Part shown: in pieces, positions 22,440 to 60,626 of the stretch | Position numbering within the stretch: position 1 is the stretch's first letter | Layout: the number at the start of each line of letters is the position of its first letter | Virus record (IMG/VR): IMGVR_UViG_3300042894_005670 | Length of the DNA: 64,000 nucleotides | Source of the DNA: a virus | Direction: 5' to 3' (one strand) | The notes under the pieces: generated by a model | Database searches by the model: none | Seen by the model: only the letters and a program-made list of their open reading frames with translations | What the model was told of the DNA's origin: nothing | Made by a program: the position numbers and the translations under genes

Positions 22440-23684
22440 TTAATGTTCAAGCAATAAGGTTATAATAACGTCATTACGGTTAGCACTATCGTCCCCATCC
22501 CCAGGCGCCACCACCACATTCCAATATGGCTCACCATTAGACTTTGTACCATCCTTAAATCCCATCATTTGATCATAAGTAATAATCGTTTGTGGTTTTA
22601 TACCATATTTTTGTGCTGCACGTTGTTTGAATGTTTCCCAAGCCTCTGCATTTTTCCAACGTAATTTATTATTTGCATCACGCCCCATTAAATCAGTAAA
22701 CAATGCACGATCAACAATTTCACTACGCTTTACTTCTTGACCTGTCTGTTTTTTAAATAATTCTACTTTTTTGAATTCTCCTGATTTTGCTCCCATAGAA
22801 AAATTAATTCTAAAATTCTTTGGACGTTCGCTTGTTGCAACATCGCCTATTTTTGTATAGGCATAAAATTGCACGTCAGGAAACTTTCTTGCAACATCAT
22901 AGGCTAAGTTAAGATATTCAGGGCTAAAGAAATCACCCGCATCGTGCCAACGAATGATGACTTGTGTACCCTGTTTTTGAAACTTATTTCTTGCAGATTC
23001 AATCTCATTTTCTAGCATAGCTTTCCATCCATCGGGATCATTAAGTAAAAAATTTAATGATCTTGATCCTGCTTCAGATGGTGGAGCATATTGTACATAA
23101 CCACCTTTCATTGCATAACATACTTGTACGCATTTTCCTGCCCCAGGGCAAGTATTTACAACCACAAATTTCATCTTTTCTTCATCTACTGCTAAACCAA
23201 CTAAAGCAGGTAAACCAATATTAAAAAATATACTGCTACTTCCATCACTATGCTGCATTTTTTCGTTTTGTTTTAACAGCTTCTTAGGACGTTGCATCAC
23301 TGATGCCATCAATTTTGGCAAATCATACAATTGATTACTAGGATCTACAATAGGCACTGTGCCACTGTGAATATATGGACGTATTAGTTTATCTTGCTTA
23401 AATCGTTTGTAAACTTCGTATTCTTCACCTGACATTTTACCAAGTTGTTTTTTACTTGGTCTACGATATTTTTTCTGTAATTCAGGGCTAAGTTTTCTAC
23501 GTAAATAGTCAGTTAATTCGTCTTCAGGATAATCTCGACGTGGTGCCCCTAAGAATTTTTCAGCTTCATCTAATTCTTCTTGATCTTGTACAAATTGTTG
23601 TAGTGACATCACCTCAACTCCCTGAGCGGCGCCTGGAAAATCGGACTTTAATGTATCTTCAAGTAATAATTCATTAATTTTCAT
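22440..23684 (-). CDS. GP88-like Cys-cluster (radical-SAM-like) protein
   Basis: LPAL...TCPGAGKCVQVCYA, IRWHDAGDFFS, FYAYTK, INFS. Confidence 0.7.
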   Translation of the reverse strand: MKINELLLEDTLKSDFPGAAQGVEVMSLQQFVQDQEELDEAEKFLGAPRRDYPEDELTDYLRRKLSPELQKKYRRPSKKQLGKMSGEEYEVYKRFKQDKLIRPYIHSGTVPIVDPSNQLYDLPKLMASVMQRPKKLLKQNEKMQHSDGSSSIFFNIGLPALVGLAVDEEKMKFVVVNTCPGAGKCVQVCYAMKGGYVQYAPPSEAGSRSLNFLLNDPDGWKAMLENEIESARNKFQKQGTQVIIRWHDAGDFFSPEYLNLAYDVARKFPDVQFYAYTKIGDVATSERPKNFRINFSMGAKSGEFKKVELFKKQTGQEVKRSEIVDRALFTDLMGRDANNKLRWKNAEAWETFKQRAAQKYGIKPQTIITYDQMMGFKDGTKSNGEPYWNVVVAPGDGDDSANRNDVIITLLLEH

Positions 23685-24655: not shown

Positions 24656-26845
24656 TTATGATGAGCCAAAAAACTTATTCATCAAAGCTTTTTGTTTTTT
24701 AGGTTTTGCCCCAAGTACAGGACTAATATTAGCCACCTTATCAGTGCCACTTAAGTATTTTGGGTTACGCTTGTCCTCTTTAGTATAACGTGGGTCTTTA
24801 GGGTCATACTCAGTACCAAATGCACTCTTAACTTGTGACGAATTGAATATGATATAAGACATATCTATATAGTCAGCTTGTTTTTGCAAATACTGATGCG
24901 CTTCTTGTTCAGCTTCTTCAGGTGTATCGCCTTCACCAATAGGTAAAGTAGGCATAACATTATCAGGTAAATATGCTACGTATTTTGATCCTTCTTTTTT
25001 AATCGTAAAATTAATGCGCTCATCAGGTCGCAATGTTCGCTTACCTTCATTAGTATTACGATATTGTATACCATCATATCCCGCATCAAACAATGAACGT
25101 GCTAATTCAGCATAGATTGTTGCTTTACAGTCATCCCAATCCATATCACGATCCCTACGAATTGCTTCAAGTTCGTTATATTCTTTTTGGTTAATAATCT
25201 TTTTCTTAAATAAAAAATTCATAACTTGACGTAAATGCTCTTCATCAGGACCAAATATGTCAGGCATAGTAAAAGGGTTTGTAATCTTTAAAAATACAGG
25301 AATTACACGTGCTCCACTATATTTGGCAAACTCATTAGCTGCTTCACGATTGCCAAAATGTATACCAAAATCACGATATAAATTTTTAAACGTTGAAAAA
25401 TCATTAGATGTACCATGATAAACAATCATAGGAGCACCATTACTATCAACTACTTTACTATTGCCAAACCATGCTCTTAAATTTTCCTCACGACCTTCTA
25501 CTAATTCTTTTAAAAAACTCATGGACTCTTTGTTGATATTAGGATTAGTTGGGTCAAATGTACCATCATTGTAAACGGATTTGATTTGCTCAGGGCGTAA
25601 TGCTATGTACCACGTTTTGGTTCTGCCTTTTATAACGAAGCCATCATTACCGTTTTCTGTAGCCTTTTTAAGAAGATTACGCACTTGGACGTATCCCTTA
25701 CTAGAATTAGACATTGACACCCATTTGTCCACGGATATAGAAAGCGGATTTTTAATAGATAAGAAAACGGGGATGATGTTGGCACCTTCTTGTTGAGCAT
25801 ACCCGCCAGCATCCGAGGCTGACGTTGAGAAAAAGATGCCTAGATAATCAGTTGCATTTGGCACACTGCTGCCTTTTGGCGCAGACTTGTCAAACGCTGC
25901 AAAGTTTCTGAGCGTACCGTGATACACCACTAACGGATCGCCTCTTTCATCAACCACCTTACTATTACCAAACCACTTATTAAAATTATTTTTTCTATCA
26001 TTACTATCTTCTTTAGTAATGTCAGGTTCATATTTACCAAATGTACCTACATTATATATAGACTTGATTTGATACTGTTCAAATGGACGATAAGTTAAAA
26101 TAATCGGTGTGCCCTCAGCACCAAGTTCTAACTCTTTTCCATCACGTGGTTCATATTTTTGGGAACCTGCTTCAAAAACATCTTTTAAAATGACACCATC
26201 ATATCCCATACCTTGTAGGTAACTTACAATATCTTCACTATCTGCAATAGTATATGTATCTATAACCGTATTGTCTAGTGCATCCTCAATAGAACTAATA
26301 TCGTCTGCTTCACCCCATGTGTCAATTTGATCTGAAAGGTCACGAAATCCTTTTATTCTAAAACCATCATCGTCATAAGCATTGATTGAAAATCTTGCGC
26401 CTGTTTTGTATATAATTTCATCTAAATCATATATCATATAGGACACATCTCTCCAACCTAATTTTTTACGTCCACCATCAGGTACATTTAGATCACTAGG
26501 CACCGTATTAATAAAATCTATTAATGATATTGTTTCGTTATAACGGGTAAGATCTAATGGTTTAACAATTCGTAAATACGCTGCGATTACAGTAGAACCA
26601 CTACCATATTGTCTTGTGTCTAAATGTCTAGAGTATACACTAGCTGCTGCAGGGTCATTAGTAAAAGATGGTACTGCACGACCTTGAGTTAATTTAAATT
26701 CTGTGGCAGCAGGTCGCTTACGTGTACCACGATATACAACAAGTGGGTTGCCATTACTATCAACCACTTTACTATTACCAAACCAACTACGAAATGCTTT
26801 TGTCTCTCTAGCTTTTTGGTATTCTAATAATTGTCCAATTTTCAT
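24656..26845 (-). CDS. Three tandem ART-PolyVal-like ADP-ribosyltransferase domains
   Basis: WFGNSKVVD..G.P..VY(H/R)GT...L.I..P...G.DG...Q(I/V)KS repeated three times. Confidence 0.8.
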   Translation of the reverse strand: MKIGQLLEYQKARETKAFRSWFGNSKVVDSNGNPLVVYRGTRKRPAATEFKLTQGRAVPSFTNDPAAASVYSRHLDTRQYGSGSTVIAAYLRIVKPLDLTRYNETISLIDFINTVPSDLNVPDGGRKKLGWRDVSYMIYDLDEIIYKTGARFSINAYDDDGFRIKGFRDLSDQIDTWGEADDISSIEDALDNTVIDTYTIADSEDIVSYLQGMGYDGVILKDVFEAGSQKYEPRDGKELELGAEGTPIILTYRPFEQYQIKSIYNVGTFGKYEPDITKEDSNDRKNNFNKWFGNSKVVDERGDPLVVYHGTLRNFAAFDKSAPKGSSVPNATDYLGIFFSTSASDAGGYAQQEGANIIPVFLSIKNPLSISVDKWVSMSNSSKGYVQVRNLLKKATENGNDGFVIKGRTKTWYIALRPEQIKSVYNDGTFDPTNPNINKESMSFLKELVEGREENLRAWFGNSKVVDSNGAPMIVYHGTSNDFSTFKNLYRDFGIHFGNREAANEFAKYSGARVIPVFLKITNPFTMPDIFGPDEEHLRQVMNFLFKKKIINQKEYNELEAIRRDRDMDWDDCKATIYAELARSLFDAGYDGIQYRNTNEGKRTLRPDERINFTIKKEGSKYVAYLPDNVMPTLPIGEGDTPEEAEQEAHQYLQKQADYIDMSYIIFNSSQVKSAFGTEYDPKDPRYTKEDKRNPKYLSGTDKVANISPVLGAKPKKQKALMNKFFGSS

Positions 26846-27282
26846 CCACGGTCTTTTTTCAATATGCTACGAAGCATCCATGAATGTTTTGCGTGACTAT
26901 CAATACGTCCTGCTATAAAATCAGCAATACCTTGCTCATCTTCTGCTTCACATTGATGGAATGTTTCTTTTAATAATACAATAATCTTTTGATTATCTTC
27001 GTACAATTCTGCCATCATTAACTCAGCACGTGGTATTTGTTGTTGCTCATCAATAATACTTAACTCTTGATACCTCGTCATGGATCCTGGTGCATATGAG
27101 TCTAACTGTCGAATTATTTCAGCTAGTTGATCAATACTGCCATATACTTCATTATACAAATCACCTAAAAATGCATGATATTGTGGAAAGTTTGGGCCTT
27201 CAATGTTCCAATGAAACCCTGCTGCCTTTATATAAAAAGCAAATGATGTTCCTAACACTTGCTTTAACTTATCTTTTAACAT
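26842..27282 (-). CDS. dps: Dps ferritin-like protein
   Basis: FHWNIEGPNFPQYH, D.LAE.IR, H.KH.WMLRS. Confidence 0.9.
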   Translation of the reverse strand: MLKDKLKQVLGTSFAFYIKAAGFHWNIEGPNFPQYHAFLGDLYNEVYGSIDQLAEIIRQLDSYAPGSMTRYQELSIIDEQQQIPRAELMMAELYEDNQKIIVLLKETFHQCEAEDEQGIADFIAGRIDSHAKHSWMLRSILKKDRG

Positions 27283-29728
27283 TCTTTTTACCTTCTAGCA
27301 TATTCTTTTGTGCTTCGTGACCTTCCATATACTCTGCTACATCTTTTATTAGTTCATCAGCACGTGTAATGTGGTCGGAGACCCATCCTGGCAAGCCTTG
27401 TCCTTCACTTCTACCTTTAATTATCTTAGCAAGTGACATTGAACTTTTTACGGTAGATAATAAACTGTTTACTGCCATTGATACTTCATGGTCAGGTTCC
27501 ATATGCTTAGCTTTAACTACATCACCACGCATACGCATTTTACCAGGCATCACTATGAGGTCTTGTTCACTTAAATCAGCTTCCTTCAATGTGTTAGGTA
27601 TAGCACCCGTATTGTTTAAGAAAAACTGATCTGTTACACCTGCTTTAATTTTTAAATCTCGCACTTGCTCTCTATACTCGTTAATTTCTTCCGCAATAGC
27701 ACGACCTAATATTTGACCAATTTGTTCAGGTGTTGCAGGTACATCAGGTCCTGTACCACCAAATTTTGTATTTACTAACCTAGGGAAGTAATTTCTAACA
27801 ACACTAGCTAAACGATTAACTGTTTCACTCGTTAAAGCTTTGTATTGTTGTATATAATTATCATATGAAATATTGTTAGCTAATGCTTTACCACCTGCGG
27901 CTATCGCTGCACCTGCCGCTGCAGCTTTACCTAAACTTCCTAAAAATCCTCTACGTGCAGGATCAGCTTCATTGATACTTTCTTCATCAGAAAATTTTGC
28001 ATCACGTAATGCATCTTCAAAAATTTCATCTAATCCATAAATTGCACTTTCTAATTCATGCTTGGCTTCATAAACACGGCTATTATGATAATTAAAATCA
28101 TCCATGTCTAATGCATAAGCTTTTACTAAATTTTCAATTTCTACCATAATTTCATTTACGGTATTATCGTATGAAATTCCTTTAGTAATTTTTCTAGCTT
28201 GCATTAAGGCACGTTCCAAATCATCTGCACGACCTTCGTTAATGCTTTCGTTCTTAGATTTATTACCCCAATTCTTTGCACCTGCTTTACGACATTTAAC
28301 TAATGCACCACTAGCATATGCACTAGGCCAAATTTTGTAACGACTTTTTACCTTATGGTAGCATGCATCTTTTTTACCTTCAGTAAATAATGCTTCACTG
28401 ACCATTTCACCATTACATTGTGGGCAAATACCCTCTTTGACATAATACTCAAGACTTTCATTCTTAGTCTTGTTGCTTACCATATCAGCCGCACCTTGAC
28501 GTTGTGGGTTTGGATCTTCACGGCGTTTTTTACGTACTGCTGCTGCAATAGCTTTTTTACCACCACTAGCACGTAATGATGCTGCTTTTTCTTTACTTAG
28601 GCATTTTGGTTTACCTTCACCTGCTTTACGTTCTCCACACTTACCAATACGCTCACCTTTAGTATTGTAGCGATCCCATCCACCGCCACCTGCACCACCT
28701 TCACCGCCTTTACCAAACCATGCACGTAAATCTTCGCTTAATTGTTCAGCAATTTCACTTTCACTGAATTCTTTGCCAACTAGTTTATCACCTGTAACAC
28801 CTTGAATTAGTGCCCATGCACGTTGAAATTCTTTTTCTTTAATTAATTGATTTAGGATTTGTTTTTGACGTGGATCTGCCATTTTAAAGAATTTAACCAT
28901 TTCCATTGCACCGATATTACCTTCATAACCTAGTTCCATCAATGCTTCTTCATTAGTATGAGATTGGTATTCATCATAATCCATATACATATCGGTATCA
29001 CGATCATAATACTTACCTTCTTTAGGATCGTAATAAACAATCTTACCTGATTTTAAACGAAATGGTCCTTCTAACCCTTGGTCTGACATATCTGTATAAC
29101 GTTCTTTATCAATTGGAGTTGATATTTTCCAACCTTCCGCCACACCTTGCGTCTCTGGACCATCCATCCAACTCTGCGTTAGTTTAATCATATCTAACGG
29201 AATGCGTTTTTTATCGTGAATTTCCATTGCCTTCAATCTTGCGGATTCTTGTGATGGGAACGGAATGGCATCAAACTTCTTATCTCTAAGAACTTTACCT
29301 TTAACTCTTACATACCAGTTTTCAGAGCCTTCCGCCACACCTTCTTTCCTAATACCAAGTGTACTCGCAGGATTACCTCCACCAAACATACTAGCAAATG
29401 CATCACTTGCTTGTTGTTTAGTATCTGCTTTTTGTTGTTTTTTTACTGATTTTTTACTCGTAACCTTTTTAAGCATTGTTTTAAACTTATCACCATCCGT
29501 TGTTGGATTAGTAGCTTCTGCCACCGTCTTTTTCTTTTTGCTACCTGCCCAATTACCCCACTCTGAAGCACTGCGCTCTACACTATTCATGTATTTTTTA
29601 CCACTATCTGCAGTCTCATCCGTTTTTTCACGTTTTACTGTTTCTTTGAATAATGGTGTGGCAACAGTAGCAACTGAACCTGCTGTCATTTCATTAATTT
29701 TATCTAAGGTTTTACGAATATCTGACAT
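27269..29728 (-). CDS. Modular virion-internal polyprotein (about 10 modules joined by hydrophobic-x-E motifs)
   Basis: INE|M, VAE|A, GVAE|G twice, LME|L, LSE|D, FTE|G, INE|G, INE|A, LKE|A separating unrelated segments; TAAATA upstream. Confidence 0.65.
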   Translation of the reverse strand: MSDIRKTLDKINEMTAGSVATVATPLFKETVKREKTDETADSGKKYMNSVERSASEWGNWAGSKKKKTVAEATNPTTDGDKFKTMLKKVTSKKSVKKQQKADTKQQASDAFASMFGGGNPASTLGIRKEGVAEGSENWYVRVKGKVLRDKKFDAIPFPSQESARLKAMEIHDKKRIPLDMIKLTQSWMDGPETQGVAEGWKISTPIDKERYTDMSDQGLEGPFRLKSGKIVYYDPKEGKYYDRDTDMYMDYDEYQSHTNEEALMELGYEGNIGAMEMVKFFKMADPRQKQILNQLIKEKEFQRAWALIQGVTGDKLVGKEFSESEIAEQLSEDLRAWFGKGGEGGAGGGGWDRYNTKGERIGKCGERKAGEGKPKCLSKEKAASLRASGGKKAIAAAVRKKRREDPNPQRQGAADMVSNKTKNESLEYYVKEGICPQCNGEMVSEALFTEGKKDACYHKVKSRYKIWPSAYASGALVKCRKAGAKNWGNKSKNESINEGRADDLERALMQARKITKGISYDNTVNEIMVEIENLVKAYALDMDDFNYHNSRVYEAKHELESAIYGLDEIFEDALRDAKFSDEESINEADPARRGFLGSLGKAAAAGAAIAAGGKALANNISYDNYIQQYKALTSETVNRLASVVRNYFPRLVNTKFGGTGPDVPATPEQIGQILGRAIAEEINEYREQVRDLKIKAGVTDQFFLNNTGAIPNTLKEADLSEQDLIVMPGKMRMRGDVVKAKHMEPDHEVSMAVNSLLSTVKSSMSLAKIIKGRSEGQGLPGWVSDHITRADELIKDVAEYMEGHEAQKNMLEGKKNVKR
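29133..29343. repeat. Exact 16-bp direct repeat CCTTCCGCCACACCTT (encodes GVAEG on the minus strand) flanking a 65-codon module
   Basis: 29133-29148 and 29328-29343, 195 nt apart. Confidence 0.9.
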
Positions 29729-29772: not shown

Positions 29773-31182
29773 TTAGAACTTACCTGATGGCTTTGCTATG
29801 GGTGGTATACCACTACGTTTAATCTTACCTAAACCTAATTTTATAGCATTTTGTCTAATACTATCAGGTTTAATATCAACCGTTAATGCTGTTTTAAATC
29901 TTGGATCGTTTTTTTCTGCTTCACTAGGGATATATCCTGAAGCCTCATTAACATTAAATGTAGGATCAACTTTCTGACGTTTCATTCCTTTGGGTTGGTT
30001 AGGGTCAAGAGGATCAATATCCGTAGTAGATAAACCTGTTGCTTCTAAATCATCAATATATTTGTGTTCAGTATCTTCATCACCAAATGTTAATATGGTG
30101 CTAGGTGGTCCTTTACCAAAATCATGCTTACCTAAACCCTTAAGATTACTAATATGTTGTCCTAACTTATACCAATCATACACATCACTTACATCTACTC
30201 TAACCGTACCTTTTGGCATAGTGGGTTTAAACTCAGGACCAGGTGGGTTTCCGTTAGGGTCATAATCATCACGTAATTTACTATAATGTTTTCTATTTTT
30301 AGCCAAGTTTTTGTATGCCATTTCAGTAGCTAAACTACGCACACTAGTATTTGCCATTTCAAACTTTATACCACGCTTTAATTCACTTATGATATCATTT
30401 CTACTACAACCATGCATCTTTGCTAATTCACTAATAGTATATACAGGTTGTTCAACATTTTTACCAACCTTTTGCTCCATACTCATCTTTTCACTATGTA
30501 TTTCATTATAAGTATCACGCAGACGATGCAATAAACCACTAGTACGGAACGCTTTAAATGCTATATTTTCAGGAGAAAATTCACCTTGTGCATCTAAACC
30601 TGCTTTTCGATATTTTCTAATTGTATCTAGTAAGTCTTCAATCTTGTCTATATCTCTAGCTTGTAGTGCTAATTCAGCTACTTGTGCTAATTTTTCAAAC
30701 TTTAATTGACTTGCTGGTTCGTTGATATCAGCAACACGTTTGGTAGGAAATTTTATCCAACGATCTTTTAGTACACTGTACTCACCACGACTAACAACAG
30801 GATCAGCCGTATCTTGTACGTATAATTCTACTTCATAACCGCCTATAGTAATATCATGTTGCAAATTCCATATGATTTTTTTACTATGAAATAACTCACT
30901 ATAAATTTCATCATTTTTTAATTTCTTAATATCAACTAAAATATGTAAGTCAATATCACTATGTGGCGTATAGGTATATGAAGCATTGCTACCACTTAGT
31001 GTAATATCTTTAACATCTATATTACTTACACCAAGATGCTCCATAAAATCATCTGCAATTTCTAATAACCGATCACGCACAGCAGGAATCATGTGTTCAT
31101 CCCTAAAAATAGCAGGGTTTAACTGATCATGAAACTGTATAGCGTTTGATAATTTAAATTGTTCTAATTCTTTTAAATTCAT
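29773..31182 (-). CDS. Pol-beta-type nucleotidyltransferase fused to further modules (incl. degenerate DUF5661-like)
   Basis: LSGSNASYTYT..SDIDLH, VELYVQ; start MNLKEL after TAAATA. Confidence 0.75.
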   Translation of the reverse strand: MNLKELEQFKLSNAIQFHDQLNPAIFRDEHMIPAVRDRLLEIADDFMEHLGVSNIDVKDITLSGSNASYTYTPHSDIDLHILVDIKKLKNDEIYSELFHSKKIIWNLQHDITIGGYEVELYVQDTADPVVSRGEYSVLKDRWIKFPTKRVADINEPASQLKFEKLAQVAELALQARDIDKIEDLLDTIRKYRKAGLDAQGEFSPENIAFKAFRTSGLLHRLRDTYNEIHSEKMSMEQKVGKNVEQPVYTISELAKMHGCSRNDIISELKRGIKFEMANTSVRSLATEMAYKNLAKNRKHYSKLRDDYDPNGNPPGPEFKPTMPKGTVRVDVSDVYDWYKLGQHISNLKGLGKHDFGKGPPSTILTFGDEDTEHKYIDDLEATGLSTTDIDPLDPNQPKGMKRQKVDPTFNVNEASGYIPSEAEKNDPRFKTALTVDIKPDSIRQNAIKLGLGKIKRSGIPPIAKPSGKF

Positions 31183-31250: not shown

Positions 31251-32240
31251 TTACTTCTTCTCAGAAGTTTCTTCGGGTTTTTCTAACGCTGCGTGTGTAT
31301 CTAAAGCAGGGTTAACCGTAGTGGGTTTATAAGGAACAGTTTTAACTGTATCATCTATTACGGTAAGCTTACCATTTTGTTCCATGACATTGACAAAGGC
31401 AGGTCCGATATTATTGTACAAGTACTCTTGATTTTCCATACAGAATACATAACTTCCACTGTGACGTAATAATACACGTTTATCAACCCAAATACGTCCA
31501 CCTAAGTCACGCCAATTTTCACACATTGTCCAATCTTCACTATAGTAACGATTTTGACGCACTGCTGTATCAAAAAATGTCGCCAAGTGTTGATCATAAA
31601 TTGGGTCTAAACCAATGTCATTCTTATAAGGTTTAACGGCAGGATGTGATTTCATTTTTTCAAATACATGACGTTTTGTTAGTAAGAAACCTGTACCTGC
31701 TTTTGATACTTCTTGTAGTCCATCAGGACCTTCTTCCGCACCTTCAAATCCATTGACAACCCATTTGATAGGCATTGTTTTCATTGGGTACAACCCACCA
31801 ATAACGTCTTTATCACGATTAAGTAATACCAACAAATGCCATGGTTCCCAACCAATATCAGCATCTACAAAGAATAAATGTGTTGAATCTTTTTGATGAA
31901 GAAATTTTGCAGTTAATGTATTACGTGCACGACTAATCAATGATTCATTAACCATGGTTTCTAATGTCCAATCAATCCCTAACTGACGTGCAGTGTTAGC
32001 GAATTTGATAAAAGACATAAATGTTGATTCAGTTAACATGCCACCATAACATGGCATTGCAATATGTGCTTTTGTTGTTCTTAAATAATCAACATTTACT
32101 TGTACTTGCCCTTGTTGCGGGGCGGCAGCTTTTTTTGCTTCTTCTTCGGAAACAGTACCCCCAATGCTTGCTGATTGGCTTGCTTTATCAGCTAATTCTT
32201 GGACTGCATCTACGGGAATTTTGGCTTGTTCTGTTGTCAT
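31251..32240 (-). CDS. GT-A-fold glycosyltransferase-like protein (paralog of 23717-24418)
   Basis: AMPCYGG, ESLISRARN, FVDADI, GTGFLL.KR.VF, SEDW..C. Confidence 0.75.
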   Translation of the reverse strand: MTTEQAKIPVDAVQELADKASQSASIGGTVSEEEAKKAAAPQQGQVQVNVDYLRTTKAHIAMPCYGGMLTESTFMSFIKFANTARQLGIDWTLETMVNESLISRARNTLTAKFLHQKDSTHLFFVDADIGWEPWHLLVLLNRDKDVIGGLYPMKTMPIKWVVNGFEGAEEGPDGLQEVSKAGTGFLLTKRHVFEKMKSHPAVKPYKNDIGLDPIYDQHLATFFDTAVRQNRYYSEDWTMCENWRDLGGRIWVDKRVLLRHSGSYVFCMENQEYLYNNIGPAFVNVMEQNGKLTVIDDTVKTVPYKPTTVNPALDTHAALEKPEETSEKK

Positions 32241-32999: not shown

Positions 33000-33683
33000 T
33001 TATGCTACTTCAGGAGGTTTTTGTATTGAGTATTCCTTTTTAATACATTCATGAAAAGTCATATAAAACAATGATTGCATATGCTCATCGTCATAATCAA
33101 AAAATAAATCTCCACCAATCCATCGACCATTTTTATTATTTGCATCCCAATGCATATAAAAATTAAAATTAGGAGATGGGAAAAAATGTTTTTTATACTT
33201 TGTAAAAAAATCACGTAATTCAATTAATTCGGTATGAGAATACACCCTTGACTTTAAATAGATACGAAAATTATGCTTTGGGTTTTTATGATATATAATT
33301 TCTTTAGGTCTTGAAAAATTTACAAGTACTTCTTCAACAGTGTTAGGTTGACCTAAAATTTTAGCTAAATCTTCTATAATATCATAGCGTGTTGAATATA
33401 CAGTAATACTATTAACATGTTTTAATGTTTTAATATAATCATCATTTGCTGATTTCCATATAAGAAATTTCTTAATTTCAATTAAGTTTTTAACATAAGC
33501 TTCACGAAGATTAGAACGAAGTAATTCGCTTTGTATTATTTCTAAATCATAATTTCTATGGATACCAATTTGCTTAAGGTCAAAACAAACTTTATATTTG
33601 TACTTGTCATACCATAACCAATGTTGATTTACATTAGGTTGCAGTGTTGTATAGCTAAATCCTGATAATACCATCTGTTCCAA
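33000..33683 (-). CDS. Hypothetical protein
   Basis: 227-aa ORF. Confidence 0.6.
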   Translation of the reverse strand: MEQMVLSGFSYTTLQPNVNQHWLWYDKYKYKVCFDLKQIGIHRNYDLEIIQSELLRSNLREAYVKNLIEIKKFLIWKSANDDYIKTLKHVNSITVYSTRYDIIEDLAKILGQPNTVEEVLVNFSRPKEIIYHKNPKHNFRIYLKSRVYSHTELIELRDFFTKYKKHFFPSPNFNFYMHWDANNKNGRWIGGDLFFDYDDEHMQSLFYMTFHECIKKEYSIQKPPEVA

Positions 33684-35931
33684 TTACCTCATCCTTATCA
33701 ATTGTTTTTTCTGCTGTAAAATTAATTTCATCTCCGTTTAGTATAACGTGAACATTAGAATCTTTTAATTTTTCAAATAAAATCTTTTTACTTAACGGTA
33801 CTCTGATAAGTTCATCAATCTTACGAGCAAGTGGACGTGCACCCATTTTATCGTCATAACCAACTTTAGCTAAGTGCTCAACTGCTTGCTCACTAATCGT
33901 TAAATTAATCTTGTGCTGTTTAAGTAATTGTGCTTTTAACTCATTAACAAATTTAATAACAATTTTCTTAATGGCTAACATGTCTAACTTACTAAACTTA
34001 CATACTAAATCAATACGATTACGCAGTTCAGGTTTGAAAAACTCTTTAAATGCTCGGTCATCTTCACCTACTTTTTGTGTTGACCCAAAACCAATGTTTG
34101 ATTTTTCACTATCTCTAGCACCTAAATTACTAGTCATAATAATGATTGTGTTTTTAGCATCTACCGTTTTACCATTAGTGCTAGATATTCTACCCTCATC
34201 CAATAATTGTAAGAATAAGTTATACACATCAGGGTGTGCTTTTTCAACCTCATCAAACAATAATATAGCGTATGGGTTTTTACTTAGATCATTGATAATT
34301 TTTCCACCACCAAGATTACCTTCACCATAGCCGACATAGCCTGGGGGCGCACCAATCAAAGCAGCTACGCTATGTTTTTCTTGATATTCACTCATATCAT
34401 AACGTAGCAATGGCATGCTTAAATGTTCGCTTAATAATCGAGCAGTTTCAGTCTTACCGCTGCCTGTTGGTCCTAAGAATAAGAAACTTGCCATAGGTTT
34501 CTTTTCATTAGAAATACCCGCAAAGCTAACATATATTCTATCTAAAATTTTCTCTAATGTAGCATCTTGCCCATAGAGTTTTTGTTTAATATTTTGATCT
34601 AAGTTAGTCATTTTTTCTGATGAATCATTAGTAAGTTTGTCCGCAGAAACGTTACACATTCTAGTGACTTGTTCTTTAATACTATTTTCATCAATAATTG
34701 CACCAACATTGTTTGCAGCACGTTGTTTAGCACATGCTGCATCGAGTAAATCAATGGACTTATCAGGATTTTTTCTATCATGAATATATCTTGCGCTCAT
34801 AGTGACTGCCTCAGTAATAGCATTAGGCATAATTTTTACACCATGAAATGACTCAAGACGTTCACTTAATCCTGTCAAAATGTCAATAGTAGTTGCATTT
34901 GTTGGCTCATCAATAGAAACACGGTAAAATCGACGCATTAAAGCACGATCTTTTTCAAATGATTCGTAGTATTCTTCCCACGTGGTACTAGCAATTACCT
35001 TCAAGTTACCTTTTGTAATTGCAGGTTTAATCATATTGGCAAAGTCTACACTGCCACCACTACCATTTCCACTACCACGCATAGTGTGTGCTTCATCTAT
35101 GAATAAGATAGCTTTAGGTTTGGTTGCTAATGCTTCTAAAACGTGTTTAACTTTTTCCTCAAAATCACCACGATACTTACTACCTGCAAGTAGTGATCCA
35201 ATTTCTAATGAATATACTTCATGGTCAAACAAAAATGGTGGTACATTTTTGTCAAGAATTTTTTGTGCTAAACCTTCAGCAAGGACGGTTTTTCCAACGC
35301 CTGGGTCGCCAACAAGTAATACATTAGATTTGAAACGTTTAGCTAATACATTGACAATATCATTAACTTCACTTTCACGCCCAATCAATGGCTCAATTTT
35401 ATTACGTTTGGCTAACTCAGTTAAACTAATCGTAAACTCATCTAATACTTCATTAGCTTGTTGCTCAGTCATTTTTCCACTCTTACTACTTTTGTGTGCT
35501 TTATTCCAATAAGCAATAAATTCATTCCGTGTTACGCCCCATTTCAATAAGAAATAATGTGCATGGCTGTTAGTTTCCTGTAAAATTGAAATATATATGT
35601 CTATTAGTTCAATTTGTCTGCGTCCTGTGAATAATACTTGTGTTACTGCACGATTAAAAACACGCTCAAGTGAATGAGTTTTCTTTGGTGCTACAGGAGT
35701 ACCATCTTCATTTGGAGACACTTTTAAATTATTGACTGAATCTAAATATTCATCAACTTCTTGAATAAGTTGTACTGTATCGACACCAAATTCATCTAGA
35801 TGTTCCCTAAATGATTCAAAGGTAATCAAACTTAACAAAGCATGTTCTAATGTTACATAACCATGATATCTGCTTTTTGCAATCTCAATGGCATGCTCAA
35901 TTAATTTTTCAATTTCAGGGTTGTTTATCAT
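33655..35931 (-). CDS. clpA: ClpA-type Hsp100 ATPase
   Basis: Clp N domain, GDPGVGKT, GSKYRGDFE, FIDEAH, GPTGSGKT, GAPPGYVGY, FDEVEKAH, IGF loop, GARPL. Confidence 0.93.
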   Translation of the reverse strand: MINNPEIEKLIEHAIEIAKSRYHGYVTLEHALLSLITFESFREHLDEFGVDTVQLIQEVDEYLDSVNNLKVSPNEDGTPVAPKKTHSLERVFNRAVTQVLFTGRRQIELIDIYISILQETNSHAHYFLLKWGVTRNEFIAYWNKAHKSSKSGKMTEQQANEVLDEFTISLTELAKRNKIEPLIGRESEVNDIVNVLAKRFKSNVLLVGDPGVGKTVLAEGLAQKILDKNVPPFLFDHEVYSLEIGSLLAGSKYRGDFEEKVKHVLEALATKPKAILFIDEAHTMRGSGNGSGGSVDFANMIKPAITKGNLKVIASTTWEEYYESFEKDRALMRRFYRVSIDEPTNATTIDILTGLSERLESFHGVKIMPNAITEAVTMSARYIHDRKNPDKSIDLLDAACAKQRAANNVGAIIDENSIKEQVTRMCNVSADKLTNDSSEKMTNLDQNIKQKLYGQDATLEKILDRIYVSFAGISNEKKPMASFLFLGPTGSGKTETARLLSEHLSMPLLRYDMSEYQEKHSVAALIGAPPGYVGYGEGNLGGGKIINDLSKNPYAILLFDEVEKAHPDVYNLFLQLLDEGRISSTNGKTVDAKNTIIIMTSNLGARDSEKSNIGFGSTQKVGEDDRAFKEFFKPELRNRIDLVCKFSKLDMLAIKKIVIKFVNELKAQLLKQHKINLTISEQAVEHLAKVGYDDKMGARPLARKIDELIRVPLSKKILFEKLKDSNVHVILNGDEINFTAEKTIDKDEVIGTDGIIRI

Positions 35932-36361
35932 ATTGTTTTTCCAATTTTCTATCCATCATAGTAATACCATCTAAATGATCCACTTCATGTTGTATAACAC
36001 GTGCTTCTAACCCACTAAATGTTTCAACAAACATGTTACCATTTGCGTCATTGTAAGATAGCACAATAGTTTCAGGTCTGTCAAGTTCCACTGATTCATT
36101 AGGATAGCTTAAACATCCTTCAAGATAAGGTGTACTACCTTGTGCATCTTGAATCATAGGATTAAAAAAAGCTTTTTCATTATTATCTACTGCCATAACA
36201 AAAACCCTACTGCGTAATCCAACTTGATTAGCAGCAAGTCCAATACCACCACTTTCATGCATAAATTTTAACAACTGCTTAGCTAATAATTCGTTTTGTA
36301 TGGGGTATTTGAAATCAACAGGTTTAGTTTTTTGATATAATGTTCTTTTAGTTAGCTTCAT
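35915..36361 (-). CDS. def: Peptide deformylase
   Basis: [24 protein letters not shown]. Confidence 0.95.
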
Positions 36362-37152
36362 TTCGTATTTAATACACGTTCTTGCTCTAAAACTCTGATT
36401 AAATTGTCACTTATTTCTTCAGGCATAATGGGTCTAAGTATAACATACTGATCACCCAATCCAAAATTATTGGATAAACCATGACCACCTAACCTTAATG
36501 TTGCATTAGGTTTAGCTCTTGGTTGTATGCTGATTTCTAGTTCTTTACCATATATCGTTGGTACGATAATTAACGAACCTATGACTAAGTCAAAAATACT
36601 TATATCATAATTAAAATATAAATCTAACCCACGCCTTTCAAACAAAGGATGCCTATGTTGTCTATAAGTAACTTGAAGTGGTCCATCAGGCATTAACCCT
36701 TCATACTTAACAACACCACCATCGTCAATACCTTTTGGTATTTTCACTTCAAATAATTTCATACCTTGTGGTGTATTAATTTGCAAATTATGTTTATCAC
36801 CTGTGGCTATTTGTTCTAAAGTGACAAATACTGTAGCGGTATATACTCGCTGCTGCGGTGGTGCATGTGGATGCCTAAAGAATTGCCCAAAAATATCATG
36901 GATATTTTGTCCGAAATGAAACTCAAAACCACCTTGTTGTGGATTAAACCCATTAAATTGTGGTTGAGGATTGTCATAAACAGCACGTTTTTGTGGGTCA
37001 CTTAACGTGTCGTATGCTGCTTGTATAGTTTGAAAACGTGCAGTATCACCACCTCTGTCAGGATGGTGTTGACTTGCTAACTTACGATATGCTTTTTTAA
37101 TTTCATCAGGAGTAGCATTTTTTGCTACTCCTAACGTCTGATAATGATTCAT
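36358..37152 (-). CDS. dnaJ: DnaJ-class co-chaperone (type II, no Zn finger)
   Basis: J domain with HPD, G/F-rich linker, DnaJ C-terminal domain. Confidence 0.9.
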
Positions 37153-42923: not shown

Positions 42924-44078
42924 TTATACCTTTAAAAATTTATTAATATCAAATCCTAATCCATTGATATTTTGTTTCCATGAATAAGGTCCCCATGAAC
43001 CATAATCAGTAGATAAGTTACCACCTGTATCATCGATGTTGGCAATAACTTTTTCTTTGAAAAAATTATCTACAGATAAATTTTTTATTGCTTGTTTTCC
43101 TTTAAGTTTAGCCATTTTCCAAAACTCAGTCTTAAAAATTGACCCATGATAATAATGAAAACCTATCATATTTTCAATAGACTGAAGTTCTTTAGTATAG
43201 AAAAAATTAATATCAAAAATTCTTGCATCAAAAGCTAAGTGGTCAAAAGTTAAACGATTAATAACGTCCATCGTACTAATTGAGGTTGCTTCTAATGGTT
43301 CTAAAAAGAATGAAGCATTACCATTATAACATACTCTTTCTGTAAAATTTTCTTTACGATAATAATTATTAAAAGAAAAAGAATTAGTCATGTCACTTGG
43401 TGTTAGGTTGTAATCCTCAAAAACGCTTTCAACATCTTTTTTAATTTCATCTAATGAATTTAATTGATTATTATATAAGTATCCTACTGAACATCTATTT
43501 TGCAAAGGTATAACAAAAACCCAACCATATTTTCTTGCAACTGTTCCCGTATAAAAAAACTTTGGTCTATCCCACAAGCACTGCGTTACGTGTACTGAAT
43601 TTACAGGAATGCGATCAGACAATGTAAAATCTTCATAAGTTTGTGGTTTGCCTGTACAATCCATAATATAATCAGCATCAATATCATCATAAGAAATAAT
43701 ATTTGACTGATGTATAGTAAGTTTTTTATTTTTTTGTGCTTCCCGTAAAATAAATTCTTGTAACTTTAAAGCGTTGAAGTGAAATGAAATGTCAGGGGGT
43801 GGGAAAAAATGAGTATACTCTTTTCCTTTCGACCAATTTTGTTTTTTAATGCCATGCTTATAAGTACCATCGATTTCATTAGCTAGCATGTCGTAATTAA
43901 AACGACAAAATTTAAAAAGTAATCGAGGTAAATTTAAAGTACTACCTTCACCCACTGCTTGTGTTGGTATAGATTCATCAAAATACCAATCTATCTCATA
44001 ATCTGAATAACTTATAAAATGTGCTACTGCTAAAGCACCTGCCGTTCCACGACCAACTATAGCTAATTTTTTACTCAC
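42924..44078 (-). CDS. Tryptophan halogenase-like flavoprotein, copy 2
   Basis: VGRGTAG, VGEGST, YKHGI...NW, DCTG, GWVFVIP, FLEPLEAT. Confidence 0.8.
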   Translation of the reverse strand: MSKKLAIVGRGTAGALAVAHFISYSDYEIDWYFDESIPTQAVGEGSTLNLPRLLFKFCRFNYDMLANEIDGTYKHGIKKQNWSKGKEYTHFFPPPDISFHFNALKLQEFILREAQKNKKLTIHQSNIISYDDIDADYIMDCTGKPQTYEDFTLSDRIPVNSVHVTQCLWDRPKFFYTGTVARKYGWVFVIPLQNRCSVGYLYNNQLNSLDEIKKDVESVFEDYNLTPSDMTNSFSFNNYYRKENFTERVCYNGNASFFLEPLEATSISTMDVINRLTFDHLAFDARIFDINFFYTKELQSIENMIGFHYYHGSIFKTEFWKMAKLKGKQAIKNLSVDNFFKEKVIANIDDTGGNLSTDYGSWGPYSWKQNINGLGFDINKFLKV

Positions 44079-45246
44079 TTTGTAAATCCTTTGGATTAAT
44101 ACCCAAATTTATCAAATTTTGCCACCATGAATAGGCATCCCATGATCCAAAATTGTTTTTATTTAATGTAATATGTTTTGGTATTTTATTTTCTTCATAC
44201 TTTATAACATCTTTTAAACATGCTTGAAACTTAGGGTGATTTTTAAGCATGTTTAAAGATGATTGACCTTTTTCTTTTGCCATTTTCCAAAATTTAGTAT
44301 TAAACTTAGAACCTTGACTGTAATGCATTGAAATCATTAACTCAATTTGAGTAATATTATTAAAATAGTGAAAGTTACATTCATCTAAACTCATATTATC
44401 GTACAGATGATCGTAAACCAAACGTGAACATTGATTAACAAAAACAAAAGAAGTTGCCTCTAAAGGTTCTAAAAAGAATGATGCATTACCATTGTATGCA
44501 ACTCTTTTAGTAAAATTTTCTTTCTTAAAATAATTTTGAAATTGAAAAGCATTTGTTTTGTCACTTGGTGTTAATTTTAATTCTTTAAAAACATTGGTAA
44601 CATCTTTTTTAACTTCATCTAAAGAACTTGTTTGTGGGTTATACAAATAACCTACTGAACAACGTTTTTGTAATGGTATACCAAAAACCCATCCATGTTT
44701 TCTAGCCATTGTCACCGTATATTCAAATTCAGGTTTATCCCAATAACATTGAGTAACATATACTGCGTTTACAGGAATAAATTTACATATGTGAAAATCT
44801 TCATAATTTTCAGGTCTACCTGAGCAATCAATAATGTAATCAGCATCAATGTCATCATGCGAATTTACATGTTGATCATATATCTTTAATCTAGGATTAT
44901 CTTTAATTTTATCATGAATAAGTTTTTGCAAAGCTATTGCATCAAAATGCATTGCTATATGGGGTGGGTAAAACCAATGATTAAAATCATGATTGTGTTT
45001 ACCCCAATTGTACTTTCTAATAGCGTACTTATAATTTCCACCTATATTTTTAAGGTCATTGTAAGTAAAATCAATAGTTTGTCTTAAATTTCCAGGTAAT
45101 ACAAGCGTACTGCCTTCTCCTACAGCTTGTGTAGGTATATTGGGGTCAAAATACCAATCAATTTCATCATTTGTAAAATTTAAAAAGTGAGCAGCATTTA
45201 CAGCACCTGCAGTGCCACGCCCAACAATCGCAAGCTTTTTTTTCAT
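44071..45246 (-). CDS. Tryptophan halogenase-like flavoprotein, copy 1
   Basis: VGRGTAG, VGEGST, YKYAI...NW, DCSG, GWVFGIP, FLEPLEAT. Confidence 0.8.
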   Translation of the reverse strand: MKKKLAIVGRGTAGAVNAAHFLNFTNDEIDWYFDPNIPTQAVGEGSTLVLPGNLRQTIDFTYNDLKNIGGNYKYAIRKYNWGKHNHDFNHWFYPPHIAMHFDAIALQKLIHDKIKDNPRLKIYDQHVNSHDDIDADYIIDCSGRPENYEDFHICKFIPVNAVYVTQCYWDKPEFEYTVTMARKHGWVFGIPLQKRCSVGYLYNPQTSSLDEVKKDVTNVFKELKLTPSDKTNAFQFQNYFKKENFTKRVAYNGNASFFLEPLEATSFVFVNQCSRLVYDHLYDNMSLDECNFHYFNNITQIELMISMHYSQGSKFNTKFWKMAKEKGQSSLNMLKNHPKFQACLKDVIKYEENKIPKHITLNKNNFGSWDAYSWWQNLINLGINPKDLQSE

Positions 45247-57788: not shown

Positions 57789-60626
57789 CTACTTAATACC
57801 TGCTAATTTTAACCATCCATCTAAACTTTCACTTTCTGCTACAGGACGCACTTGTGTTTTAGGAAGTGTAGTGTTATCAACCTTAGGACCGTTTAATCCA
57901 CCACTAAGTGCTTGTAACATATAATTCATTTCTGTTTGGAATTCTTCATCACTTAATTTATTCTGTGGTGAATTTGCCCATTCATCAACTTTTTTCTTGT
58001 CTTTTTTATCATCATATTCGATATCTTTGGTAACTTTTTTACCTGCTTTTTCAGCTTTGGCATCATCTTTACCTTTATGACCTTCATCATACTCTATATC
58101 TTGAGTTACTTTTTTCCCTGCCTTTTCTGCATGTTCATCTTTTTCAGCAGTAGATTCTTCAGCAATCATTGCTAATTTCTTGAACAATCCTTCAAAAGTA
58201 TAACCTTCTTCATCTAGCTTATCGTGTTGAGCACGAATCTTTGCCATTTCTTCTTTTCCTGCTCCTTCACGTCCTGCCTGCTGAAGTGCTTTCATACCTT
58301 CTTCACCATACTTCTTTTTACCAAGATATGCTTGTAGCGCACTTTCTTCAACTTCATCTTCATGCATGGCTTCCATATAACCACATTCATTGCACTCATG
58401 TGCTGATTCTTCCATAGGTGAACCACACTCCATACAAGATTTTTCTTCAAATGTTGCAGGTTGATCTAATGCTTCTTCAGGTACATATGATGCTGCTAAA
58501 CCTGCATCACGCATCGCTTCAGATCTTTCATCTTTTTCACCTGCTACATCTGTAGGATCGTCTGCATCATATGAATCTTCTTTAATATCTTCTTCATCGT
58601 CATCAGATTCTGATCCACCATAATGCTTACCTGCATGATGTTTTGTTACACCATCTTTACGCTCGATACGGCCACCTGTTGATGACTTTTCTGTATGATC
58701 TTTATGATCCTCATCATCAGCTTCTTCAACTTGTTTTTTATAACCCATTGCTTCATATTTTTTAATCACATCAGGTTCATCTCGTACTACAATTTCTTTA
58801 CCTGATGTTTTATGAACCATGTTGCACTTACCACCTGTATCTTTTACAGGACCTAAATCGTCTGATTCATCAATATCTTTAGTCTTAATCGCATTAGTGC
58901 CAGGAATCTTTTCACCAATCTTTACGTCATCGTCTTCTAACCCTTTTGTGAAAAGATTACCTTCTTCTACTTCAGCTTCATCCATCTTATTAGCCATTGG
59001 ACTCATCTCTGCATTTCCAGGACTTGCTGTCTGTGTTTGACCTTCATCACATCCACAATCAGCCTCAACAGGTATACCAATCATTTTCTTTAAGAATGAT
59101 AAATCAGTATCGCCATTATCATCATGTTCTTGTCCACCTAATTGACCTAATACTTCATCTTGATCAGTTACCTCAGGTCCCATATCATGTGCAGCATCTG
59201 CACCACCATGACCAATACCTGCGTTACGTAATAGTTCCATCATTGATTTAGCATCTTCGCCTGATGCACTAACGCTAACGCTATCTTCTTGTCCCATCGG
59301 ACCACCTGTAGAAGTTGTAACAGTTAAACCTTCTTGTAATAAAGATTGTAATTGTGAATCCCAACTTTCTTCTACTTTACCAAATTTTTTACCTTTATGC
59401 TTTGAACGTATTGCAAATTCAATTTGATTTTGTTTTTTATACTGAGGTGAACCTTCTTTATGTGGTCCTGACTTTTTGAGTTTTGATAACATTGACTGTA
59501 ACTCGTCAATTGATTTATCAGCATATTCACCTGTTTTTTCAATTTTAGCGTCACCTGCCCATTTTTCATCTAACTTTTTTGCTTCAAAGGCAAATTCACG
59601 TTGACTTGTTTCAAATGCTGATTTTTTCATACTTGGTTCCATATCTAATTGTTTATTTAATTGACGGTTGGCTTGCTGTTGTGGCACCAAATCTACCGTA
59701 GATTTTACACCAACTGTGTCTAATGTTGCGGGTTTACGCATTGATGGTGGGAAATCATATTCTTTCTTTGCCTCATGCATAACACCTGTATCTTCCATAT
59801 AACAACTTTCAACATGTCTGCGAAGTTCTTCTAGTGGACCATGCCAAATTTTACGTGGGATACGACCTTCTTTATAATAATGATCGCACAATGCCTCATA
59901 TAATCCTTCATCCATTGACCAACCTTCTTGACACATTTTGTGTTCATGTGGATAGGCTTCTAAAATTTCTTCAAGCATACTTTCCATAATAGGTTGTTTA
60001 TTAGCATCAGCACTTTCATACATACTTTCATCTTTCTTATGCTTTTTATTATATTCATCCCATGCAGTAGCATAAAGAACACCTTCCCAACGATCACCGT
60101 ATTGTTTCTTAAATGCTTCTTTACGACCTTTAATCCAATCTTCCATGCCTGGAGGGGCGACTTCTTCTAAATTTTCCTCGCCTAATGCAGTAACTTCTTT
60201 ATTTTTTACTGCTTTATCTAATGCAGCTTTTAATGGATCGTTAGGATCTTTAAAATCTATAACTTTCATGCCAACTGCAGCATTACCCGCAGGACGTGAT
60301 GTTGCTGATGGCTGTGTAGTTGCACCAATTGAGGGTACTGCTACTTGGCTTTGATCAAGTGCGACTTCATCTAATTGCTGCTTTTCTGTTTCAATTTGTT
60401 CCATATACTCTTTAAGCTTATGGGTTACACTTGTTTTACCAACAGCTTTAGCAGGTTTTTTACCAATAATATCTTGAATATCTGCACCACCACTAGTATC
60501 TAATTCTTTAGATGGTTTATCATCTTTATCATCTTTTTGTGAAGAACCACCATAGGCAGTACCACTAACTTTACGTGTGCCTTCCTCAAGTTGAGAAATT
60601 TGTGCAATAATTGATCTTAAATCCAT
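57789..60626 (-). CDS. Acidic head/internal polyprotein or scaffold-like protein
   Basis: 945 aa, Glu-rich, more than 20 hydrophobic-x-E motifs, LKLAGIK end, TAAATA upstream. Confidence 0.6.
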   Translation of the reverse strand: MDLRSIIAQISQLEEGTRKVSGTAYGGSSQKDDKDDKPSKELDTSGGADIQDIIGKKPAKAVGKTSVTHKLKEYMEQIETEKQQLDEVALDQSQVAVPSIGATTQPSATSRPAGNAAVGMKVIDFKDPNDPLKAALDKAVKNKEVTALGEENLEEVAPPGMEDWIKGRKEAFKKQYGDRWEGVLYATAWDEYNKKHKKDESMYESADANKQPIMESMLEEILEAYPHEHKMCQEGWSMDEGLYEALCDHYYKEGRIPRKIWHGPLEELRRHVESCYMEDTGVMHEAKKEYDFPPSMRKPATLDTVGVKSTVDLVPQQQANRQLNKQLDMEPSMKKSAFETSQREFAFEAKKLDEKWAGDAKIEKTGEYADKSIDELQSMLSKLKKSGPHKEGSPQYKKQNQIEFAIRSKHKGKKFGKVEESWDSQLQSLLQEGLTVTTSTGGPMGQEDSVSVSASGEDAKSMMELLRNAGIGHGGADAAHDMGPEVTDQDEVLGQLGGQEHDDNGDTDLSFLKKMIGIPVEADCGCDEGQTQTASPGNAEMSPMANKMDEAEVEEGNLFTKGLEDDDVKIGEKIPGTNAIKTKDIDESDDLGPVKDTGGKCNMVHKTSGKEIVVRDEPDVIKKYEAMGYKKQVEEADDEDHKDHTEKSSTGGRIERKDGVTKHHAGKHYGGSESDDDEEDIKEDSYDADDPTDVAGEKDERSEAMRDAGLAASYVPEEALDQPATFEEKSCMECGSPMEESAHECNECGYMEAMHEDEVEESALQAYLGKKKYGEEGMKALQQAGREGAGKEEMAKIRAQHDKLDEEGYTFEGLFKKLAMIAEESTAEKDEHAEKAGKKVTQDIEYDEGHKGKDDAKAEKAGKKVTKDIEYDDKKDKKKVDEWANSPQNKLSDEEFQTEMNYMLQALSGGLNGPKVDNTTLPKTQVRPVAESESLDGWLKLAGIK

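Follow-up and report, generated by a model that had tools for sequence, protein, structure and literature searches.

Why would a single viral gene carry the same short DNA word twice, in frame and in codons that its genome seldom uses? The gene in question, P0001, encodes a long modular protein and lies in the stretch that we analyzed, 64,000 nucleotides (nt) of the IMG/VR virus record IMGVR_UViG_3300042894_005670 (hereafter the window, within which all positions are numbered; the record itself, G000, measures 73.7 kb). The word encodes a short peptide, which we call the linker, on both sides of one of the modules. The linker very probably marks sites at which modules are exchanged. Taking all lines of evidence together, we favor, at a rough probability of 0.6, the reading that P0001 is a head-packaged polyprotein in which the linker, Q-G-V-A-E|G, serves both as a protease site and as microhomology for the in-frame recombination of modules.

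A search of the window recovered a 16-nt word in two exact copies on the minus strand, both in the frame of P0001 and encoding E-G-V-A-E-G, with a start-to-start distance of 195 nt, or 65 codons (Table 1). When up to three mismatches were allowed, the window contained three matches, the third at 31729 with three mismatches, as against a mean of 0.25 per shuffle in 100 dinucleotide-preserving shuffles, none of which reached three. The full linker of 18 nt has the consensus CAA GGT GTG GCG GAA GGC. The G+C content of the window is 35%, and in its long minus-strand open reading frames (ORFs) GTG accounts for 11.7% of the Val codons, GCG for 7.0% of the Ala codons and GGC for 11.3% of the Gly codons. 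Of the five linker codons, three are rare, and the other two, for the first Gly and the Glu, are those most often used in the window. Owing to the rarity of GTG, GCG and GGC, the codon string is expected in well below 1% of such peptides (~0.4% from the codon usage of the window). An earlier note on this DNA had described both an exact, in-frame repeat at this spacing and GTG-GCG codons unusual for the genome, and our counts agree with it on both.

The same word recurs in many other phages. An exact scan of IMG/VR with the 14-mer inside the linker returned at least 120 loci, with 160 sites among the matches listed. Of these listed sites, 132 read G-V-A-E-G within open frames that are 200 amino acids (aa) long or longer, representing 124 unique contexts; most of the remaining ones are located in high-G+C contigs and look like chance. 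The 124 contexts share only a CAA (Gln) codon before the word and, in 74% of cases, a C after it, which gives the rare GGC codon. To what extent the codons are fixed can be judged from the further G-V-A-E-G peptides left after one ascertaining copy per ORF is set aside: 36 out of 52 are encoded by the exact 14-mer, compared to the ~0.4% expected from codon usage. Furthermore, in 80 loci picked by a protein module rather than by the word, all five G-V-A-E-G peptides use the exact 14-mer. The earlier note had anticipated conservation at synonymous sites and spacings in multiples of three, and both were found, the silent rare-codon positions being kept in more than 100 unrelated contexts and 39 of the 40 spacings within listed loci being multiples of 3.

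Five linker-bearing records (G001-G005, 726 kb in total) contained 26 copies with at most one mismatch, which share a strand within each record and are clustered in one to three genes. A control with the reversed pattern gave no copies in the same records. The linker is found across G+C contents of 0.36-0.49 and in phages whose DNA polymerases are only 60% identical. What it separates is highly diverse. Only about 20 of 96 linker-bearing ORFs share any module with P0001, and they do so at different positions; cutting at the linkers yielded 77 internal modules in 70 families with a median length of ~73 aa, most of them being 45-110 aa long and without a known family. Pfam recognizes few of these modules and finds only scattered domains in 70 linker-bearing ORFs (GNAT, ParB, LysM and deaminase in some, GP88 in 6 of the 70). 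A match to a capsid family among the linker ORFs was rejected as a chance in-frame match in a contig of 56% G+C.

To compare alleles of the gene itself, we used 14 orthologs of 585-908 aa obtained by protein search, nine of which were also compared as DNA. They are near-identical except at two places, with backbone DNA that is 93-98% identical. The first variable place lies between two linker positions and holds at least eight mutually unrelated cassettes (A, B, C, D, E, F, G and H), which we found in nine arrangements: A, as in the window, B, C, E, A+C, B+C, A'+D, F+G+C and F+H. Cassette content is independent of the backbone groups. Module C, for example, has an identity of 98-99% among four phages, as against only 88-93% for their N-terminal regions, and it has four different left neighbors. 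Most of the joints consist of the same DNA, namely CAA, the 14-mer and a final C or T. This last base tracks the right-hand partner, being C where a cassette follows and T where the conserved backbone does, which points to a break in homology within the linker. Where the linker varies, V and E are kept and the residue between them is A, G, V, E, N, S, D, T or L; in one ortholog allele, Lys replaces the linker Glu.

The clearest case of a module present in one phage and absent from another is a pair of loci, L002 and L005, which differ in this region by a single in-frame indel of 201 nt corresponding to module C, with flanks that are 97.6% and 97.9% identical. The indel ends inside the two linkers flanking module C and leaves a hybrid linker, next to which the single-nucleotide polymorphisms of L005 match those of L002. 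The pair, a filled and an empty allele, fits a deletion or insertion between two linker copies. Empty-site alleles of the kind predicted at the repeat are thus seen and, rather than G-V-A-E-G codons that vary freely at a repeat where no modules come or go, we found the codons kept and modules gained, lost and swapped. A second scan of IMG/VR with the conserved core added only one close ortholog, on a contig already among the compared loci.

These alleles bear directly on the possibility that the linker is a protease site whose DNA identity is passive, the modules having spread together with their own linkers through flanking homology and the 14-mer being identical by recent descent. The similarity of the backbones would allow double crossovers in the flanks to swap the whole variable region. 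In close relatives, the linker also changes at about the pace of the backbone: of 10 linkers compared at the first joint between orthologs, 5 are exact, the variation being as large as in the surrounding backbone. Nevertheless, we consider this explanation unlikely. New combinations, such as module C behind four different neighbors, need exchange between modules that share only the linker. Apart from CAA and one base, the flanks of the 124 contexts do not resemble each other, the linker stays the same across the divergent polymerases and G+C contents given above, and the L002/L005 indel ends inside linkers.

Module A itself, the cassette of the window, looks foreign and mobile from its composition and distribution, as the earlier note had proposed. 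CCAG is about 5-fold under-represented in the window (34 copies seen, 163 expected), as is CTGG (26 and 119), and most CCAG copies are part of CCWGG. Only 11 copies in the 64 kb lie outside CCWGG, and two of these fall within the 179 nt of module A (Poisson p ~5e-4), close to the two out of about ten that had been noted before. Similarly, there is a single CCGG in the 64 kb, and GGCC is found 15 times where 38 copies are expected. The scarcity of CCAG, CCGG and GGCC looks like restriction-site avoidance with CCWGG tolerated. Module A is found in 35 representative protein clusters, at residues ranging from 21 to 673 of proteins of 87-996 aa, and is nearly always bounded by the same linker. A word search for stand-alone homologs of 33-107 aa found none, and the look-alikes of module A in the Atlas were unnamed viral clusters only, with scores below 0.8.

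How might such a joint work at the protein level? All gp21-family proteases studied so far cut after a Glu that follows a short motif (PMC5694885), and in T4 a 10-residue capsid-targeting sequence suffices to load a protein into the head, after which it is removed (PMC9026906). A gp21-type gene (Peptidase_S77) lies beside gp20 and gp23 in three of the five linker-bearing records, the DNA polymerases of these three being 60-71% identical to that of the window; one such gp21 homolog in the clade is the ORF at L213:6641-7273. The leader pattern M-[KR]-x-x-[EDQ]-[LIF]-[LIFV]-x-E is found in 24 of 56 linker ORFs and in 64 of the 529 remaining ORFs of these loci (odds ratio 5.4, p 9e-8); many of the 64 are neighboring genes of a similar type. 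The ART-PolyVal and GP88 genes of the window also fit this pattern. That the repeat combines a recombination site with a G-V-A-E|G protease site had been suggested before. The role as a cassette joint is supported by the alleles, and that as a protease site is plausible, given the V and E kept among variants, the gp21-type protease in relatives and the T4-like leaders. On these sequence grounds, the linker is probably cut by a head protease.

From this, we infer cleavage, packaging, injection and a route of recombination as follows. P0001 would be a head-packaged polyprotein of the internal-protein type, in which an N-terminal leader precedes some ten small modules unrelated to one another. 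Between the modules would lie hydrophobic-x-Glu sites such as those that gp21-type prohead proteases cut. Its clade reuses the same linker, letter for letter, between hundreds of unrelated modules. As protein, the linker would be the cut site that frees each module inside the maturing head, and the freed modules would be injected with the DNA as separate small effectors. As DNA, it would offer a patch of identity in a fixed frame, at which the general recombination or replication machinery of the phage could delete, insert or exchange whole modules with the frame intact.

About as improbable as passive identity is a linker that acts as a recombination joint only. The product would then remain uncut, as a beads-on-a-string multidomain effector (a polyvalent protein) with the linker as a flexible spacer. 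Some polyvalent proteins are indeed packaged unprocessed (PMC5512222). Moreover, the conservation extends to Q, G, A and G, which a hydrophobic-x-Glu site does not require, and one allele has Lys in place of the Glu. A mere spacer, on the other hand, leaves it unexplained that V and E are precisely the residues kept when the linker varies, that other joints of P0001 are also hydrophobic-x-Glu despite their different DNA, and that leaders ending in the same motif occur in the clade together with a gp21-type protease.

Several points weigh against P0001 being a cleaved and packaged polyprotein with a recombining linker. At P3, the residue known for T4 gp21 is Leu or Ile rather than Val, and no gp21 (Peptidase_S77) gene was found in the 73.7-kb record of the window, which is ~21% complete. 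The N-terminus of P0001 itself fits the leader pattern poorly: with 13 residues, it is longer than the 9-10-residue leaders of its neighbors and falls outside the pattern that we used, so that its assignment as a leader is tentative. The AlphaFold2 model obtained from a 14-row alignment (mean predicted local distance difference test score 37.8) is of too low a quality to demonstrate independent folding of the modules. Module A and a linker-rich polyprotein gave no match among GenBank phages; no cultured or GenBank phage carries either. As for the DNA, 14-18 nt is short for homologous recombination of the RecA/UvsX type. Site-by-site purifying selection on the linker is not evident; with the linker exact in only half of the first joints of close relatives, its wide identity is better explained by the spread and turnover of canonical joints, from which it may stem. 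Finally, other module joints, such as those of the second cassette of P0001 and the S-G-Y-I-P of the gene upstream, use different short repeats, so the 14-mer is one widespread type of linker and not a unique signal. The general rule is that modules are bounded by hydrophobic-x-Glu sites and short repeats, the 14-mer being the most successful joint.

The earlier note had gone further and proposed an integron-like exchange of cargo. In a dedicated system of this kind, an enzyme of the phage or its host would recognize the 18-nt word and catalyze the insertion and excision of cassettes in frame. Some 18 nt, rare codons included, are indeed kept exactly across distant phages, and the site is G+C-rich in a genome of 35% G+C. 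T4-type phages also carry many sequence-specific endonucleases; in the 300-kb relative G001, a homing-type HNH-NUMOD3 endonuclease gene directly follows that of the major capsid protein, gp23 (L213:9670-10440). The absence of a visible recombinase from the window, already remarked on in that note, extends to the whole 73.7-kb record and to the five linker-bearing records of 726 kb, in none of which we found a tyrosine or serine recombinase, although these records are incomplete, one being 81% complete. PF00589, the family of IntI-type tyrosine recombinases, likewise had no match in these six records, while the controls matched in 14 of 14. RecA/UvsX-like genes are present in three of the five. 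The linker has no dyad symmetry, hairpin, conserved flanks or attC-type imperfect inverted repeats, and in the linker-bearing phages examined it has no inverted copies but always lies on the coding strand and in one frame. In addition, other cassettes in P0001 and the neighboring gene are bounded by unrelated short repeats, and the hybrid linker was formed with a diverged partner. An integron-like system is therefore not supported, and a dedicated enzyme is slightly less probable still than the two alternatives above. If true, it would amount to a targeted 'protein integron' and a fast-evolving arsenal of injected effectors.

Selection at the level of RNA or translation, with a rare-codon or Shine-Dalgarno-like patch slowing the ribosome so that modules fold separately, would suit the three rare codons and the purine- and G-rich word. 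We regard it as very improbable, since the same rare codons are always used and never the equally rare GTC, GCC or GGG, the first Gly and the Glu take the commonest codons, and the cassette alleles and break points are left unexplained. Two further roles were considered for the word and dropped: that of a Chi-like hotspot, as it contains no known Chi sequence, and that of an internal translation start, as there is no start codon at a usable distance. Least credible of all is an assembly artefact in which unrelated reads were joined at the shared word, for although all data are metagenomic contigs, the k-mers used last in assembly are far longer than an 18-nt repeat, the same alleles were met again on 3, 6 and 3 independent contigs (NCBI, JGI, ENA, Logan), and the reading frames remain open.

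As a whole, P0001 has no Pfam match at E 0.01 or better, and PHROGs of unknown function match single stretches or modules only. The degenerate repeat copy that had been thought to bound the next module is real and reads T-V-A-E-A, and among the 14 orthologs there is no cassette polymorphism at this site. The second variable place is occupied by a cassette of two types, 64% identical to each other, which has I-N-E and L-K-E sites and a 9-nt direct repeat at its borders; five of the nine ortholog loci compared as DNA have the empty-site allele. The R-R-G-F-L-G and the Ala- and Gly-rich stretch with which this cassette begins directly follow the I-N-E site and resemble a twin-arginine signal.

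Table 1 Features of P0001 and its surroundings, with positions in the window
Feature	Position	Strand	Basis or remark
P0001, 819-aa modular polyprotein gene	27269..29728	-	ORF and translation
N-terminal 13 residues of P0001 ending in I-N-E, possible capsid-targeting leader	29690..29728	-	nearly invariant in orthologs
T-V-A-E-A site (the degenerate copy of the earlier note)	29513..29527	-	V-[AS]-E-A kept in all orthologs
Upstream 16-nt linker copy (E129 to G134)	29328..29343	-	exact match; in every ortholog, the left-hand joint of the variable cassettes
Module A, ~60 aa, cassette between the linkers	29149..29327	-	in 3/14 orthologs, other modules in the rest
Downstream 16-nt linker copy, Q-G-V-A-E-G ahead of conserved backbone	29133..29148	-	exact match; base 3 of the final Gly codon varies with the partner to its right
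Second variable cassette, ~135 aa, with R-R-G-F-L-G / Ala-Gly-rich start	27569..27979	-	present in 6/14, absent from 8/14 orthologs
Triple ART-PolyVal protein, leader-like N-terminus M-K-I-G-Q-L-L-E	24656..26845	-	PF18760, E 1.4e-58, three stretches
GP88-family protein, N-terminus M-K-I-N-E-L-L-L-E	22440..23684	-	PF17338, E 1.3e-35
Nucleotidyltransferase-like gene upstream of P0001, with its own cassette alleles	29773..31182	-	weak NTP_transf_2 match

Downstream of P0001 lie a ferritin/Dps-like gene, the ART-PolyVal gene and the GP88-family gene. The three domains of the ART-PolyVal protein, whose orthologs measure 729-767 aa, come from three diverged DNA repeats that are 68-79% identical over 68 nt. 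Upstream, the orthologs of the nucleotidyltransferase-like gene (367-495 aa) differ by whole modules in their C-terminal half, and a ParB-like insertion in this gene is flanked by the repeated S-G-Y-I-P. Genes for a ClpA/ClpB-like AAA+ protein, a peptide deformylase and a DnaJ-like protein follow in a row at 33655-37152 (-) and are kept in the orthologous loci. Farther away, a 945-aa ORF at 57789-60626 (-) may encode another processed polyprotein: it contains 11 hydrophobic-x-Glu-[GAS] sites (1.2 per 100 aa, a density like that of P0001), its start ends in L-E-E, and it has no PHROG match. Two tandem paralogous genes at 42924-45246 (-) resemble tryptophan halogenase (PHROG 2928, E ~1e-70 each).

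The host of P0001 is most likely an uncultured, roughly 350-kb giant phage related to T4. CheckV estimates the 73.7-kb record to be ~21% complete, which corresponds to a genome of ~350 kb, and the DNA polymerase of the window is 50% identical to that of Phosso, 46% to that of Atu_ph07 and 42-43% to those of CBB, fHe-Yen9-04 and similar phages. The features of Group 2.2, the Atu_ph07- and Rak2-like giant myoviruses (T4-type replication and head genes, ~350-490 kb), were found, and the DnaJ, ClpA-like and peptide deformylase genes fit this group as well (PMC7824862). In the relative G002, the match to the DNA polymerase is broken into three parts (query residues 1-116, 117-620 and 608-906) along a span of 4.4 kb (C1:65117-69503), which suggests inserted elements or a split gene.

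If the linker does work both as a cut site and as a joint, a single standard piece would keep any module in frame, packaged behind one leader and released by the head protease, and would explain the turnover of a small arsenal of injected proteins among phages whose backbones are otherwise so similar. For annotation, the linker marks the exact borders of hundreds of small modules of unknown function, which are candidates for early-acting, possibly anti-defense proteins. It would also be a natural design for the packaging of multiple cargos in T4-type vectors, and a clean case of silent sites fixed for a reason outside the protein.

A full-text literature search for the peptide word returned nothing on phages, and we found no paper on the linker. 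Several known systems resemble it in part. Among the closest are the internal proteins IPI, IPII and IPIII and Alt of T4 (PMC9026906, PMC3012670, PMC5694885), to which the clade offers parallels in its short leader-like N-termini ending in hydrophobic-x-Glu, tentative in P0001 itself, and in the gp21-family protease of relatives. The internal proteins are likewise small, highly diverse and probably injected cargo, and Alt, a packaged ADP-ribosyltransferase, has a counterpart in the leader-bearing ADP-ribosyltransferase gene that adjoins P0001. Whereas T4 devotes a separate gene and leader to each cargo, here up to a dozen cargos would be fused behind one leader and separated by an internal standard site with fixed DNA.

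Exchange at short conserved DNA has precedents too. PeSL elements and the polymorphic internal-protein loci of T-even phages consist of conserved DNA flanking small accessory genes, for which shuffling by homologous recombination has been proposed (Arbiol 2010, PMC2839356; Comeau 2014, PMC4122927; Repoila 1994, as cited in these papers). As with the linker, short conserved DNA flanks small units, which in the T-even phages include the internal-protein genes. However, PeSLs are intergenic, ~70 bp long and composed of an early promoter and a stem-loop, while the linker has 16-18 nt and encodes a peptide; as it lies inside the coding frame, exchange must keep the frame, and it does. The glycine-rich motifs of the gp38 adhesin (PMC3157838) are conserved in frame between variable segments that are swapped among phages, as the linker is between modules, but there the motifs make up the structural core of a single domain, with the segments as loops between them, whereas here whole unrelated modules are exchanged and the motif resembles a cleavage site.

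The polyvalent proteins (Iyer 2017, PMC5512222) are similarly long and built of many modules, and they are believed to accompany the DNA and to act at an early stage in the host; next to P0001 lies an ART-PolyVal gene, and some linker ORFs carry GNAT, ParB, LysM or deaminase domains. Several known effector or conflict domains in one polypeptide, however, were not found in P0001. In that study, the word 'linker' does not occur, no coded joint common to the modules is described, and processing is attributed to peptidase domains inside the protein. Integron cassettes, finally, also form an array of exchangeable units bounded by a repeated site, yet no integrase was found in the six incomplete records, and P0001 has no attC hairpin and no promoterless free-standing ORFs, its units being codon-phased parts of one protein. 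What is new here is an intragenic, codon-phased joint with two putative coded functions, and its nearest precedents are all in T4-type phages.

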